Source: Candidatus Methanomethylophilaceae archaeon
GTDB taxonomy: Archaea; Thermoplasmatota; Thermoplasmata; Methanomassiliicoccales; Methanomethylophilaceae
DNA: 64,000 bases
Direction: 5' to 3'
Assembly: GCA_050950505.1 (NCBI GenBank)
Contig: JBMNHS010000001.1
Coordinates: 1,024,001 to 1,088,000, forward strand
This document shows, in pieces, positions 9,197-48,219 of this stretch. Under the pieces are notes generated by a model that saw only the letters and a list, made by a program, of their open reading frames with translations, was not told the DNA's origin and did no database searches. The number at the start of each line of letters is the position of its first letter. The stretch's first letter is position 1. The position numbers were made by a program, and so were the translations under genes.

Positions 9197-10363
9197 ATGA
9201 AAGAGGTTGATTTCAAAGCTCAGCAGAATTCTGAAGAAGTTCAGCAAGAAGAAACCGTATCTGTCGAGAACGAAGTTATTGTGGAAACCGTTGAAACCAA
9301 GGTTGAAGAAACCGCGGAAGAAACCGTTGAAAATATCGTTGAGGACGCAGTAGAAAAACCCGCGGAAGAAACCGCGGAAGAAACCGTCGTAACCGAAGTT
9401 GAAGAAACTGAGGAAGCGGATGAGGGTACGGAAGATTCAGCAGATGCCGGAGAAACGGAATTTGATGAAAAAGAGTCTGAAAAGAGACTCGAGGCCCTTG
9501 AAGAGAAACGCAGCATTGCGGATCTCGATGCGGATAAGCACAGAAAACAGAGGGACGAATACCATGACCTTGCCAGAGAATGGAAGGCTAAGAGGGATTC
9601 GTTGAACGCGCAGGTGAGGGACTTAGTGGCCCATGCCACCGAGAGCAGGGAAAAACGTGACGAGTACAACAATCTCGTCAGGGAATCCAAAGCCCTCCGT
9701 GACGAATGGAACGAGAAAGTATCCGATTTCAAGGTTAAGATGGCTGAACTCAGACCGGAAAGAGCCGACAAAGAGAAACCCAGACAATCGCTCGAAGACA
9801 TGAGAAGACACCTGAGAAGGTTGGAAATTCAGCAACAGACCGCTACGTTGACCAAAGACGCAGAGGAAGCCATCGTCAGACAGATATCCGAAATGGCAAA
9901 GGCAATTGATGAACGTGCATCCGAAGAGGAATCAAGCCTTGAACAGAACACCGAATTCAAGAAGATCCACACAGAGTTCAAGGAAGCAAAGGCAAAAGCC
10001 GAAACTCACCATGCTGAGATGACGGAGTACGCAGACAAAGCGCAGTCCGAACATGAAAACATGATTTCGTTCTACGACCAAGCCGACAGAATCCGCAAAG
10101 AAGCGGACGCGGCTCAGAGCAAACATGTCGAGTACAGGAATCTCGGTGACAAAGAACACAAGAAACACATCGAAATCGTTGGAGCTCTTCAGGAAACGGA
10201 TAAAGAAGCGGCATCTCTCAGAAACCGCAAAACCAGTGTCCGCAGAAGGAAAGCCGAAGCCGAGAACAAGAAAGAAGCCAAGGAAATCTTCGAACGCTTC
10301 AAGAACGGCGAAAAGCTCAGCACCGACGATCTTATGGCGCTTCAGCGTTCCGGATACCTTTAA
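9197..10363 (+). CDS. Archaeal coiled-coil protein (COG1340-like) with acidic N-terminal extension
   Basis: Long heptad-rich region with RDELN-type repeats; C-terminal AKEIFERFKNGEKLSTDDLMALQ. Confidence 0.8.
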   Translation: MKEVDFKAQQNSEEVQQEETVSVENEVIVETVETKVEETAEETVENIVEDAVEKPAEETAEETVVTEVEETEEADEGTEDSADAGETEFDEKESEKRLEALEEKRSIADLDADKHRKQRDEYHDLAREWKAKRDSLNAQVRDLVAHATESREKRDEYNNLVRESKALRDEWNEKVSDFKVKMAELRPERADKEKPRQSLEDMRRHLRRLEIQQQTATLTKDAEEAIVRQISEMAKAIDERASEEESSLEQNTEFKKIHTEFKEAKAKAETHHAEMTEYADKAQSEHENMISFYDQADRIRKEADAAQSKHVEYRNLGDKEHKKHIEIVGALQETDKEAASLRNRKTSVRRRKAEAENKKEAKEIFERFKNGEKLSTDDLMALQRSGYL

Positions 10364-10371
10364 ACATTTTC

Positions 10372-10390
10372 GCCTGCGGTTTCCGCAGGC
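10372..10390 (+). terminator. Hairpin after the coiled-coil gene
   Basis: GCCTGCGG-TTT-CCGCAGGC. Confidence 0.6.
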
Positions 10391-10451
10391 AAAATATAAT
10401 TTTTTACCATTTTTCAGAACATTTATATAGATACCATCTGATGAAGTATCA

Positions 10452-10520
10452 CGGGGATTAGGTCAGTTTTGTAGAGTGCATCCCATCCCTTCTGACCGGC
10501 TGGCCTCTTCCCGCACTTTT
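10452..10520 (+). ncRNA. Candidate hairpin small RNA with a 29-nt CU-rich loop
   Basis: TTTATATA at 10422-10429; stems CGGGGA/TTCCCG and AGGTCAGTT/GGCTGGCCT with four G-U pairs on +; ends in TTTT. Confidence 0.55.
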
Positions 10521-10595
10521 ATCCTTCACAATCGTGATCGGTTTTTGTAAAAACTAAAATCTATAATATACGTAGCCTATCTAGGTGTTGTTTCT

Positions 10596-11945
10596 ATGGT
10601 AATGGAAGGTTTGGGAAGCTCGTTGAGGAATGTCCTCAAGAAAATTACCGGCGCCTCGTCGGTGGATGAAGAACTTATCAGAGAAGTGTCCAAGGATCTT
10701 CAGCGCGCATTGTTGCAGGCGGACGTAAACGTACAACTGGTGCTTCAGTTGACTTCCGATGTCCAGGAGAGGGCCCTCAACGAAAAACCTCCCGCGGGCA
10801 AAAGCGCCAAAGATCACGTTATAGGCATAATATACGAAGAAATGGTGGCCCTTCTCGACAACGGCGAAGGACTCAAACACAAACCTCAGACCATAATGAT
10901 GGTCGGTCTCTACGGCCAGGGCAAAACCACCACCACCGGCAAACTCGCCAACTATTTCATCAAAAAAGGATTCACCGTCGGACTCATAGGTGCCGACGTT
11001 TACCGCCCGGCGGCTTTGGACCAGTTGAAACAATTGGGTGAAAAAGTCAACGCCGACGTTTACGGCGAACCCGGCGAAAAGAACGCGGCCAAAATCGTGG
11101 AAAACGGAATGAAAGCCTTCAAGGACAAAAAAATCGTCATTGTGGACACATCCGGACGTCATGCCCTTGAAGACGATCTCATCACCGAACTCAAAGATAT
11201 CGCAAAAGTATCCAAACCCGACGAAAGAATCCTTGTTCTCGATTCACAGGTCGGGCAGCAGGCCGGACCGCAGGCCGAAGCCTTCCACAACGCCGTAGGC
11301 GTTACCGGCGTCATACTGACGAAAATGGACGGCACCGCAAAGGGAGGAGGCGCATTGTCCGCAGTCTCCAAAACCAACGCCAGAATCGTATTCCTGGGTA
11401 CCGGGGAGCACATAAGGGACTTGGAGCCCTTTGACGCCAACCGTTTCATATCAAGACTGCTGGGGATGGGCGATCTGTCCTATCTCGCACAGATTGTTCA
11501 GGATGAAATAGGCCATGACAAAGCCATAGAGCAGGCCAGCAGAAATATGCTGTCGGGCAAGTTCACGCTGGTGGACATGTATCAACAGATGGTCGCCGTT
11601 ACCAAGATGGGGCCCCTCAGCAAAGTAATGTCCATGTTGCCCGGAATGAGCAACATGCAGGACAAAATCGATTATGAGGAATCCCAGAAGAGACTTGCGC
11701 AGTTCAGAGTGATTATGGATTCCATGACTCTGGAAGAAAAAGAAAATCCCTCAATCATCAAAGGAAGCAGAATCGAAAGGACCGCCGCCGGCGCGGGCGT
11801 CGAGCCGAAAGACGTAAGACTGCTTCTCAAACAGTATAACCAAAGCAAGAAGATGATGGGCACATTTTCCAAAGACCGCAAGATGCGCAAACAGCTTATG
11901 AAGCAACTCGGCGGCATGGACCTCGATATGGATGCGGAGCAGTGA
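10596..11945 (+). CDS. srp54: Signal recognition particle protein SRP54
   Basis: GLYGQGKTTT, DTSGRH, TKMDGTAKGGGALS, Met-rich M domain. Confidence 0.97.
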   Translation: MVMEGLGSSLRNVLKKITGASSVDEELIREVSKDLQRALLQADVNVQLVLQLTSDVQERALNEKPPAGKSAKDHVIGIIYEEMVALLDNGEGLKHKPQTIMMVGLYGQGKTTTTGKLANYFIKKGFTVGLIGADVYRPAALDQLKQLGEKVNADVYGEPGEKNAAKIVENGMKAFKDKKIVIVDTSGRHALEDDLITELKDIAKVSKPDERILVLDSQVGQQAGPQAEAFHNAVGVTGVILTKMDGTAKGGGALSAVSKTNARIVFLGTGEHIRDLEPFDANRFISRLLGMGDLSYLAQIVQDEIGHDKAIEQASRNMLSGKFTLVDMYQQMVAVTKMGPLSKVMSMLPGMSNMQDKIDYEESQKRLAQFRVIMDSMTLEEKENPSIIKGSRIERTAAGAGVEPKDVRLLLKQYNQSKKMMGTFSKDRKMRKQLMKQLGGMDLDMDAEQ

Positions 11946-47435: not shown

Positions 47436-47448
47436 ACAAAAACCATTG

Positions 47449-47479
47449 GGCCCGGGAAACCGGGCCATGTTTTATTTTT
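47449..47479 (+). terminator. Hairpin plus T-tract after iorB
   Basis: GGCCCGG-GAAA-CCGGGCC then TGTTTTATTTTT. Confidence 0.7.
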
Positions 47480-47501
47480 CGAACCGTATCGAATAAAAAT
47501 T

Positions 47502-47546
47502 AAAAGTTGCAATGATACCGGCGGCACTTCGCACCGGCATCACTGC
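47502..47546 (-). terminator. Long hairpin ending the RHH gene 3' region
   Basis: Minus strand GCAGTGATGCCGG...CCGGTATCATTGC (G-U pairs valid on minus) then AACTTTT. Confidence 0.6.
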
Positions 47547-47630
47547 GCGTGCATCCCATAAACAAGAGGTTTGGAGGCGCGGGCCGGTATACGAGTCCCA
47601 TCCTTTGACCGGCCCGCACATATCGGTTCT

Positions 47631-47996
47631 TCATTTCAATTTCGAAGCCATCTGTGCCAAATCGAAAGCATTCTCGACGGTCTTTTTCATACCGGATTCG
47701 GGAATGATTTTTTCCAACACAGTGTTTCTCACGAATTCCTCCTCCGTAAGGCAAATCCCTTCATCCTTAAGAGTGGAAAGCATGATCATCTGCAACTCCG
47801 AAAAGCGGACGAAGATTCCGCTTTCATCCTCACGTGCGTCTTTGGCACCGGGTGCATCTCCGGAAACGAACGCTCGGATTGCGGCACGGATGAGATTGGA
47901 TCGATTTCCGATATCCGGGTTCTCTTCTACGAAGTCTTCCATAATCTGGACTTCTTCGGGTCCCATCCTGAGAGTTACCTTGATATCATCCGTCAT
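47631..47996 (-). CDS. Ribbon-helix-helix (CopG/CdrS-like) DNA-binding protein
   Basis: KVTLRM beta-strand, ..NRSNLIRAAIR helix; second RHH-like unit IFVRF...EEFVR; SD GGTGA. Confidence 0.8.
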   Translation of the reverse strand: MTDDIKVTLRMGPEEVQIMEDFVEENPDIGNRSNLIRAAIRAFVSGDAPGAKDAREDESGIFVRFSELQMIMLSTLKDEGICLTEEEFVRNTVLEKIIPESGMKKTVENAFDLAQMASKLK

Positions 47997-48054
47997 TCAC
48001 TCACCGTGCCACAGAGCTTGTAGAGTCCCATCCCTTCAGGCTCTGGATATACCA

Positions 48055-48104
48055 TGTAAGACGGAGTATTTAAAAGTGTCGGGCATTGTCCTACTTTGTC
48101 CGAC
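48055..48104 (-). promoter_or_regulatory. TATA box of the RHH gene flanked by GTMNKAC-like repeats
   Basis: Minus TTTAAATA at 48074-48067; GTAAGAC at 48056-48062; TGTC at 48077, 48087, 48097. Confidence 0.55.
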
Positions 48105-48219
48105 GGATTTGTATAAGAAATATCATACGGCTGCGCTTTTCATACGTACGCACATGATAGAGGTATAGAATAGTATATAATCGGTGTGGACTTCTTCACG
48201 AAATCATCGGGTAATGTAA

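Follow-up and report, generated by a model that had tools for sequence, protein, structure and literature searches.

A probable small-RNA gene between the DUF7121 and SRP54 genes

We analysed a stretch of 64,000 nucleotides (nt), here called the window, from the genome of a Candidatus Methanomethylophilaceae archaeon (assembly GCA_050950505.1, contig JBMNHS010000001.1, positions 1,024,001 to 1,088,000), a member of the order Methanomassiliicoccales in the phylum Thermoplasmatota. On its + strand, between the gene for a DUF7121 coiled-coil protein and the gene for SRP54, stands a short element with the layout of a small-RNA (sRNA) gene: a TATA box, about 25 nt further downstream a hairpin of two stems, H1, and a T-run behind it (table 1). 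An earlier note, made from the letters alone, had read this element as an unannotated sRNA whose loop is antisense to the transcript of a distant gene for a CdrS-like ribbon-helix-helix (RHH) regulator. In silico we find the structure of a gene, its conservation, its complementarity to the cdrS-like/ftsZ transcript and co-variation, and we consider it likely that the element encodes a trans-acting antisense sRNA that pairs with that transcript.

All the parts that the earlier note had listed, namely the TATA box, both stems with their four G-U pairs, the loop of 29 nt and the TTTT, are in place. The + strand of H1 folds at −22.8 kcal/mol with a z-score of −1.34, and 17 of 200 shuffled sequences fold as well. 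The minus strand does not form the hairpin (z = +0.53), and the claim that the hairpin is valid on the + strand only is borne out. An RNA that starts at its own TATA box and ends at the T-run would be about 65-70 nt long. A second A/T box, conserved within the genus and with similar boxes in other genera, separates the hairpin from the SRP54 gene; it is presumed to be the promoter of SRP54 itself.

Table 1. Features of the small-RNA locus and of the RHH locus. Positions are counted from the first letter of the window.
Feature	Position	Strand	Basis
TATA box of the small-RNA gene, TTTATATA	10422-10429	+	read directly
Small-RNA body, hairpin H1	10452-10513	+	minimum-energy fold and covariance models R1, R2
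Stem P1, CGGGGA with TTCCCG	10452-10457 / 10508-10513	+	fold
Stem P2, AGGTCAGTT with GGCTGGCCT, four G-U pairs	10460-10468 / 10498-10506	+	fold
H1 loop, 29 nt	10469-10497	+	between the P2 arms
Invariant loop core GUAGAGUGCAUCCCAUCCCUUCUGAC, proposed pairing face	10471-10496	+	comparative alignment
T-run TTTT 3' of the stem, presumed archaeal terminator	10517-10520	+	read directly
Second A/T box TCTATAATATA, about 26-36 nt upstream of the SRP54 start codon	10560-10570	+	read directly
SRP54 gene, conserved downstream neighbour, outside the RNA	10596-11945	+	Pfam SRP54, SRP_SPB, SRP54_N
DUF7121 coiled-coil protein gene, directly upstream of the RNA gene	9197-10363	+	
CdrS-like tandem RHH gene, 121 residues, proposed target transcript	47631-47996	-	open reading frame
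TATA box of the RHH gene, TTTTAAATA	48067-48075	-	read directly
H2, site (a): hairpin in the RHH 5' leader, loop GAAGGGAUGGGACUCUACAA complementary to the sRNA loop	48011-48047	-	
Motif of site (a), TTGTAGAGT and CCCATCCCTTC	48018-48026 and 48027-48037		
H3, site (b): hairpin just 3' of the RHH stop codon, loop AAAGGAUGGGACUCGUAU	47579-47617 (motif 47596-47613)	-	
Site (c), 11-nt exact complement, GTGCATCCCAT on the + strand, AUGGGAUGCAC on the - strand	47549-47559	-	

Conservation of the RNA gene

How widely is this element kept? Across six species of the genus, 66 of the 68 columns of the 68-nt element are invariant, and its TATA box is identical in the five other species despite the divergence of the remaining spacer. 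The 801 nt around the element, comprising the gene ends and the spacer, are only 71-72% identical within the genus. Covariance-model searches find the element in 90 of 101 genomes of the family, 63 of the 64 high-quality ones among them, and at one place per genome. For the order Methanomassiliicoccales, where the earlier note had named such a search as a check, they again find one place per genome, in 115 of 121 genomes that cover all 7 families and 31 of 31 genera. Matches occur in 108 of 141 genomes of the class. They are weaker in other classes (37 of 141 phylum-sampled genomes at E ≤ 0.001), and the 14 homologues fetched from those weaker matches all share the same architecture. Throughout such counts, related genomes are not independent samples. 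Some genomes contain two copies of the RNA, and all 14 genomes searched of one family, f10, give 2 or 3 model matches.

A scan of 185,579 species genomes for an exact 20-mer matched at least 120 stretches. Apart from one Bacteroides bin and one ‘Methanomicrobia’ bin, the 80 titles listed (78 of them) refer to Thermoplasmata, to Methanomassiliicoccales or to archaeal bins with loose labels. The Bacteroides record (L166, titled Bacteroides salyersiae) is a contig with the archaeal 20-mer, and it is probably archaeal DNA that was mis-binned when a gut Bacteroides genome was assembled.

The loop core of 26 nt, GUAGAGUGCAUCCCAUCCCUUCUGAC, is identical in 20 of 20 family sequences, and a part of 22 nt at 10474-10495, GAGTGCATCCCATCCCTTCTGA (also given as GAGUGCAUCCCAUCCCUUCUGA), in 30 of 30 sequences of the order. 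A 16-nt part, GAGTGCATCCCATCCC, is kept in all 14 of the more distant phylum homologues.

Do the stems change as those of an RNA would? In an alignment of 30 sequences, itself fitted to the covariance model, 95.9% of the cells are paired and 7 of the 15 pairs have changed on both sides. None of 500 shuffles reaches the observed value for both-side changes, and slid controls are 22-54% paired. The compensatory variants include AGGTCAG/CTGGCCT, AGGCTAG/CTAGCCT and GGGCTAG/CTAGCCC, with U-G pairs that are valid on the + strand only.

The signals around the hairpin are kept as well. By script, 25 of 30 order-wide homologues have a TATA-like box that begins 26-30 nt ahead of the model start, and by eye the other five have one there too; a run of at least four T lies within 20 nt of the 3' stem in 24 of the 30. 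Of the family loci, 28 of 30 have the SRP54 gene next, in the same orientation, as have 16 of 20 loci from other families. The DUF7121 gene stands directly upstream in 26 of 30 and 20 of 20 loci, respectively, and because of this the trio DUF7121-RNA-SRP54 is, by gene order, an old gene neighbourhood.

Sites complementary to the loop around the RHH gene

If the loop of H1 is a pairing face, what might it pair with in this genome? The sites (a), (b) and (c) that the earlier note had placed around the RHH open reading frame are all where it had put them, and (c) matches in 11 of 11 positions. The protein encoded there resembles CdrS: against the NCBIfam CdrS profile (NF058555) it scores 23.1 bits (E = 5.5e-5; cut-off 100) with residues 6-56 covered. 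It is twice the length of the haloarchaeal CdrS (profile length 61), and a Pfam scan of the protein found no RHH family. Each of 61 family genomes, and each of 20 genomes from other families, has a homologue. The RHH transcript should start near the foot of H2, because of the position of its TATA box and the usual archaeal spacing.

The duplex of H2 with the sRNA loop is the strongest of the three, with 21 base pairs (bp), a 4-nt bulge and a calculated energy of −33.5 kcal/mol. That of H3 is calculated at −19 to −25 kcal/mol and that of site (c) at about −21 to −22.1 kcal/mol. H3 itself folds on the minus strand at −26.4 kcal/mol (z = −2.87). H2 and H3 have differing stems and similar loops, and the genus counterpart of H3 carries AGGGAUGGGA.

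Are these matches copies of a repeat? The motif count that the earlier note had asked for was run for TCCCATCC, which occurs 53 times in the 1.33-Mb genome and is no repeat family. In the window it occurs 6 times against 4.1 expected, a number reached by 21 of 100 shuffles. The longer GAGTCCCATCCYTT, with at most two mismatches, has 4 matches in the window against 1.24 expected, a number that 4 of 100 shuffles attain. The genome has just two copies of GAGTCCCATCC, each beside the RHH gene, and motif and hairpin are combined only at H1, H2 and H3. The alternative that the earlier note had kept, in which all copies are GGAUGGGA loop sites for an RNA-binding protein and H1 is a decoy or a repeat, is not supported, on two grounds: the motif is unrepeated genome-wide, and H1 carries its complement, not the motif.

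Several further sequences near or resembling these sites were seen. Inside the RHH coding region, at 47958-47969 on the minus strand, the codons for R-M-G contain GGAUGGG, which provides an 8-nt complement to the loop. Its nucleotides are conserved in 28 of 30 family loci, with Arg always encoded by NGG and Gly by GGR; loci L026 and L028 are without R-M-G at that position. This in-gene GGAUGGG may be a pairing site or mere codon usage. An 11-nt exact complement, GGAUGGGAUGC, lies beside a small hairpin in the presumed 5' leader of a gene for a 167-residue membrane protein (G000:C1:238019-238070, where G000 is this genome) and may be a further target or a chance match. A tRNA-like 3' part ending in GCACCA (G000:C1:806637-806700) has 12 bases in common with the loop, in the same sense (AUCCCAUCCCUU). 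We take this to be coincidence; by our estimate about two such matches are expected by chance. An upstream open reading frame in the RHH leader (MGLYKLCGTVSE), found by eye, is not kept in other genera and was set aside.

The RHH promoter has a feature of its own. Upstream of its TATA box, at 48076-48107 on the minus strand, stand two or three conserved repeats, which read GTCGGACA, GTAGGACA and GTAAGACA here; such repeats are seen also at loci L002-L030 and L091-L110, with TATGACA in other families of the order. They resemble a DNA operator of this promoter, perhaps one for autoregulation by the RHH protein.

Complementary sites at RHH-ftsZ loci of relatives

In relatives from the family a gene of the ftsZ type, of about 230-260 residues, lies directly 3' of the RHH gene (L002:1952-2656 and its equivalents in L004-L030). 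Its protein matches TIGR00065 in the N-terminal GTPase part only, over positions 18-207 of 353 and with 160.8 bits against a cut-off of 295. Genomes from other families of the order have 5-8 full-length ftsZ paralogues.

At 30 RHH loci of the family we counted exact complements of the loop of at least 9 nt. The sense strand has 93 of them and the antisense strand 4, and 171,998 strand-bases of control loci contain 10. The complements fall at recurrent places. One of at least 9 nt lies in the leader, 36-46 nt before the RHH start codon, at 19 of 30 loci. Another lies 0-15 nt past the RHH stop codon at 23 of 30. A third, GG(G)AUGCAC(U), is found 59-98 nt past the stop codon at 17 of 30 loci, just before the ftsZ-like start in the spacers inspected; the family site on the ribosome-binding region of the ftsZ-like gene reads GGGAUGCAC. 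In 20 of 24 family leaders a hairpin with 8 or more closing bp holds the motif; with shuffled flanks this is so in 146 of 960. The threshold was set after the folds had been seen, and an earlier, stricter one gave 7 of 24.

Beyond the family the leader site is absent. Instead, an exact complement of 11-20 nt lies in 16 of 20 RHH-ftsZ spacers from other families of the order, three of which contain the full 20-mer TCAGAAGGGATGGGATGCAC (TCAGAAGGGAUGGGAUGCAC). The perfect complement that recurs between the RHH and ftsZ genes across the order and the class is (U)CAGAAGGGAUGGGAUGCAC, 11-20 nt in length. In the class, an 18-mer with at most two mismatches occurs in 102 of 141 genomes, and a reversed control gave 4 matches; often one copy of this 18-mer lies within the RNA gene itself and a further one to three at other places. 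Of 16 extra class sites that were fetched, 15 follow an open reading frame of the RHH type and 11 precede one with the FtsZ signature GGxGxN, the RHH and FtsZ identities at these distant loci being judged by eye. In those other lineages the spacer sites lie mostly between hairpins, not in loops.

What happens where the RNA is missing? Families without the RNA are mostly also without the site: the RNA is found in 0 of 14 genomes and the site in 1 of 14 in family f16, in 0 of 10 and 1 of 10 in f24, and in 0 of 2 and 0 of 2 in f25. In our reading the RHH-ftsZ spacer is the ancestral target, and the leader hairpin and the site on the ftsZ-like ribosome-binding region were added in the present family.

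Loop and site flanks change together

Outside the class the flanks of the loop differ between lineages. Does the spacer site follow the loop of its own genome? In four genomes it does. The site matches 18 nt of its own loop against 14 nt of the canonical loop in G424, 16 nt against 14 nt in G414, 17 nt against 16 nt in G327, and 17 nt against 15 nt in G321. Two of these four flank changes are A-U to U-A switches at one position, and the sites in these lineages are not themselves matches to the RNA model. In a further genome, G410 (L307, G410:C2:44986-47999), the RHH-FtsZ site fits a second, weaker-scoring copy of the RNA better than the first.

Loss of the ftsZ-like gene in this genome

What remains of this arrangement in the genome from which the window comes? 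PF00091 finds no tubulin-family gene in it (two contigs, 99.63% complete), and tblastn with proteins of relatives found nothing there below E = 0.28. A tubulin-family gene is present in 23 of 24 high-quality relatives, and the nearest relative, G087, keeps a weaker-scoring copy (65.9 bits). By the genus alignment, the ftsZ-like gene that stood between the RHH gene and the convergent iorB has been cleanly deleted here (47436-47631). Because of this deletion, sites (b) and (c) are degenerate relics of the old spacer, (c) having come from the ribosome-binding region of the ftsZ-like gene. H2 is intact and appears to be the strong remaining partner of the RNA in this genome.

These results bear on two particulars of the earlier proposal. 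It had the sRNA contact both ends of the RHH mRNA; the 5' contact at (a), with its 21 bp, is strong, and (b) and (c) do not hold as strong partners. It also had the contacts made loop to loop, a geometry that suits the hairpins of the family and does not apply in general, given the position of most sites between hairpins in other lineages. As to other genes of cell division, SepF is present in this genome (G000:C1:767227-767445), and a search of it for Snf7/ESCRT-III found none.

Known RNA families

Could H1 be a member of a known RNA family? At the gathering score, Rfam finds only two transfer RNAs (tRNAs) in the whole window, both elsewhere, and between 10380 and 10600 at E ≤ 10 it gives chance-level matches only. 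A tRNA identity was dropped: ARAGORN finds none here, and the suggestion had come from a D-arm-like 5' part noticed by eye. The RNA of the signal recognition particle (SRP; RF01857), or a mimic of its SRP54-binding helix, was likewise rejected. The full-length SRP RNA of the genome lies at G000:C1:1093142-1093447; H1 shares with it 7-mers at most, and a comparison of the two found neither resemblance nor complementarity.

Guide RNAs fare no better. The best duplexes of the loop with ribosomal RNA (rRNA) are −22.9 kcal/mol for 16S and −21.7 kcal/mol for 23S, and the 3' end of the 16S rRNA is ordinary in this respect. A C/D box sRNA would have a conserved box C (RUGAUGA); by eye neither that box nor a kink-turn was found. 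The UGAUGA at 10439-10444 precedes the predicted start of the RNA and is not kept in the genus. An H/ACA sRNA was set aside since the ACA box is absent, the 3' tail reading CAC, UAA or UAC by eye. Where such a guide would have its pseudouridylation pocket, the internal loop between P1 and P2 has, again by eye, just 2-5 nt on one side and a single nucleotide opposite. DicF (RF00039) gives no Rfam match at the gathering score or at E ≤ 10, and any likeness to it is functional only.

In the literature searched we found no published description of such an RNA. With about 90% of the family and order genomes searched carrying it and no Rfam match, it offers a new family for genome annotation.

A proposed mechanism and its rivals

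We propose that the small-RNA gene at 10452-10513 acts as follows. H1, a hairpin of two stems, would display its pyrimidine-rich loop of about 29 nt, and this C/U-rich loop would pair in trans with sense-strand sites of the cdrS-like/ftsZ transcript that are G-rich and Shine-Dalgarno-like and have the core GGGAUGGGAUGCAC. Its transcription, its pairing in the cell and the direction of its effect we infer. Such pairing would most likely lower or re-time the translation of the cell-division operon, or alter its stability or processing, and the site concerned may set the outcome. In the family, pairing on the ftsZ-like ribosome-binding region would block initiation; pairing in the spacer could instead affect the processing or stability of the bicistronic RNA; and at the leader hairpin a kissing contact could open the 5'-terminal stem, with the loop-loop contact extended to 21 bp in this genome. 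Three results argue for the unannotated + strand sRNA, pairing with the RHH transcript, that the earlier note had proposed: the conserved single-copy gene, the strand bias of the family complements and the four flank changes. A bolder version, which we put forward tentatively and hold to be rather doubtful, makes RNA and site an ancient post-transcriptional switch of FtsZ-based division across Thermoplasmatota. The RNA would then probably be an essential riboregulator that controls the output of the cdrS-ftsZ operon, its invariance owed to several simultaneous partners (spacer, leader, ftsZ ribosome-binding site and perhaps a protein), and it would persist in the absence of tubulin genes by also controlling the CdrS-like regulator.

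How else might the same facts be explained? The most serious formal alternative is a shared DNA operator: both loci would be sites of about 20 bp for one DNA-binding protein, for example the CdrS-like RHH protein, and the hairpin would be incidental. The neighbouring gene does encode a DNA binder of the RHH type, the motif holds the direct repeat GGGAT-GGGAT, and identical stretches of 18-20 bp at two loci, changing in concert, fit an operator equally well. An operator does not explain why the stems covary and use U-G pairs, which on the opposite strand would read as A-C mismatches, or why the element is bounded like a transcription unit, by a TATA box at constant spacing and by a T-run. The newly evolved sites of the family are antisense to the loop, by the 93 to 4 given above, and they match differing sub-stretches of it, one with a 4-nt bulge, which suits pairing. 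The RHH promoter, moreover, already has its operator-like repeats upstream of the TATA box. We regard a shared operator as very improbable. Much the same holds for the idea that the hairpin is a cis-acting 5' leader of SRP54, either an attenuator or a protein-binding site, which its place directly upstream on the same strand in most loci would invite. Against such a leader stand the T-run that follows the hairpin in most homologues, the second A/T box between the hairpin and the SRP54 start, and 4 of 20 loci from other families that have an intact element and no SRP54 within 300 nt. The lack of any resemblance or complementarity to SRP RNA points the same way, and a leader of SRP54 leaves the 20-nt complement in the cdrS-ftsZ spacer unexplained; we think this reading very improbable.

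Thirdly, the RNA might have a housekeeping role in a ribonucleoprotein, with its loop constrained chiefly by a protein or a different RNA and with the spacer site as a secondary partner or as a sponge that titrates it. Riboregulators do not usually keep 16-26 nt invariant throughout a phylum, the loss of ftsZ here has left the RNA unchanged, and no extended partner was found in the class family f21; all three would sit well with such an RNA. It matches nothing in Rfam and no tRNA, however, the SRP RNA lies elsewhere, and −22.9 kcal/mol is the best that it achieves with rRNA. The joint loss of RNA and site in four families, together with the matching flank changes, indicates that the spacer site is a real partner. 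We consider a housekeeping RNA of this kind unlikely. That the matches in the window are chance or copies of a dispersed repeat we do not believe: TCCCATCC alone does occur at chance rate and exact 11-mers are near expectation, but the element is single-copy, the motif is unrepeated, and conservation with perfect complements of 18-20 nt in many lineages excludes chance.

A number of results weigh against the proposed mechanism. The case within this genome is modest: in a genome-wide RNAduplex scan, which was too noisy for ranking targets, H2 is 8th of 9453 sites, and (b) at −19.2 and (c) at −21.0 kcal/mol are unremarkable, since rank 2236 is already at −20. Elsewhere the genome has 18 more exact complements of 11 nt or longer, where our own estimate of the expected number is about 10. 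RNAalifold on a MAFFT alignment of 17 of the 24 family leaders found no consensus structure, because the leader stems do not align. In f21 the loop has a different 3' half, and a search of 5 genomes that allowed up to 3 mismatches found the predicted 20-nt partner in none of them; the only match was a 9-nt GGAUGGGAU ahead of one ftsZ paralogue. The concerted change of flanks points to a shared constraint and not to RNA pairing specifically, for two DNA-protein sites would be expected to change together just as well. Further partners beyond cdrS-ftsZ, whether RNA or protein, are likely, because invariance over 16-26 nt exceeds the usual demand of one mRNA site and because the RNA is unchanged here despite the loss of ftsZ. 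Finally, the metatranscriptome contigs of three runs listed as RNA (X1-X3), which cannot show ends or strand, leave 10202-10670 uncovered. A fourth run (X4), listed as probably DNA, has a 304-nt contig of a relative that spans 10465-10513 with 3 differences and is uninformative on transcription.

Comparison with known systems

How does a trans-acting RNA directed at this locus fit what is known of archaeal cell division? According to PMC7439475, the cdrS-ftsZ2 locus is conserved across archaea and forms the core of a transcriptional network of cell division. Post-transcriptional control of the cdrS-ftsZ2 operon has been suspected in haloarchaea (PMC8303175), with no agent known. With a specific candidate RNA, and a pairing site that is exact over as many as 20 nt, such control of cdrS-ftsZ becomes directly testable. 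The RNA is unusual in its phylum-wide conservation and in having a conserved archaeal cell-division module for its target. Judged by gene structure and complementarity, it is probably an undescribed regulator of archaeal cell division.

Trans-encoded sRNAs occur in Methanosarcina mazei and Haloferax volcanii, and the Firmicutes have RsaE/RoxS with C-rich loops. To our knowledge very few archaeal sRNAs have a known target, and none is known to be conserved across a phylum. With the archaeal trans-encoded sRNAs and RsaE/RoxS the present RNA shares a promoter and terminator of its own, an unpaired C/U-rich stretch in a hairpin, and G-rich, Shine-Dalgarno-like sites on the mRNA. It differs from them in its deeper conservation, its longer invariant core, its mismatch-free complement of up to 20 nt and its cdrS-ftsZ target.

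CopA/CopT and RNAI/RNAII are the kissing-loop antisense RNAs of plasmids, transcribed from opposite strands of one locus. The family arrangement recalls them in that H1 and H2 or H3 both show the complementary stretch in their loops. Here, however, the partners lie at unlinked loci, and in other lineages the site is mostly between hairpins. The RNA is like the C/D box and H/ACA guides in its size, in having a separate promoter, in being deeply conserved and in carrying a CUGA on the 3' side of its loop (10492-10495). Unlike those guides, it is without a conserved box C, an ACA box, an rRNA complement or an Rfam match.

The nearest functional parallel may be DicF of Escherichia coli, which is reportedly a short antisense regulator of ftsZ that pairs near the translation start, borne on a prophage and narrow in range. 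Both are short trans-encoded RNAs, and in the family one site of the present RNA lies on the ribosome-binding region of the ftsZ-like gene. Antisense control of ftsZ in E. coli is cited in PMC8303175. The two RNAs have no relation in sequence or structure. The one described here comes from a single-copy chromosomal gene found phylum-wide; it has its main site in the spacer ahead of ftsZ, and its second target is the regulator gene.

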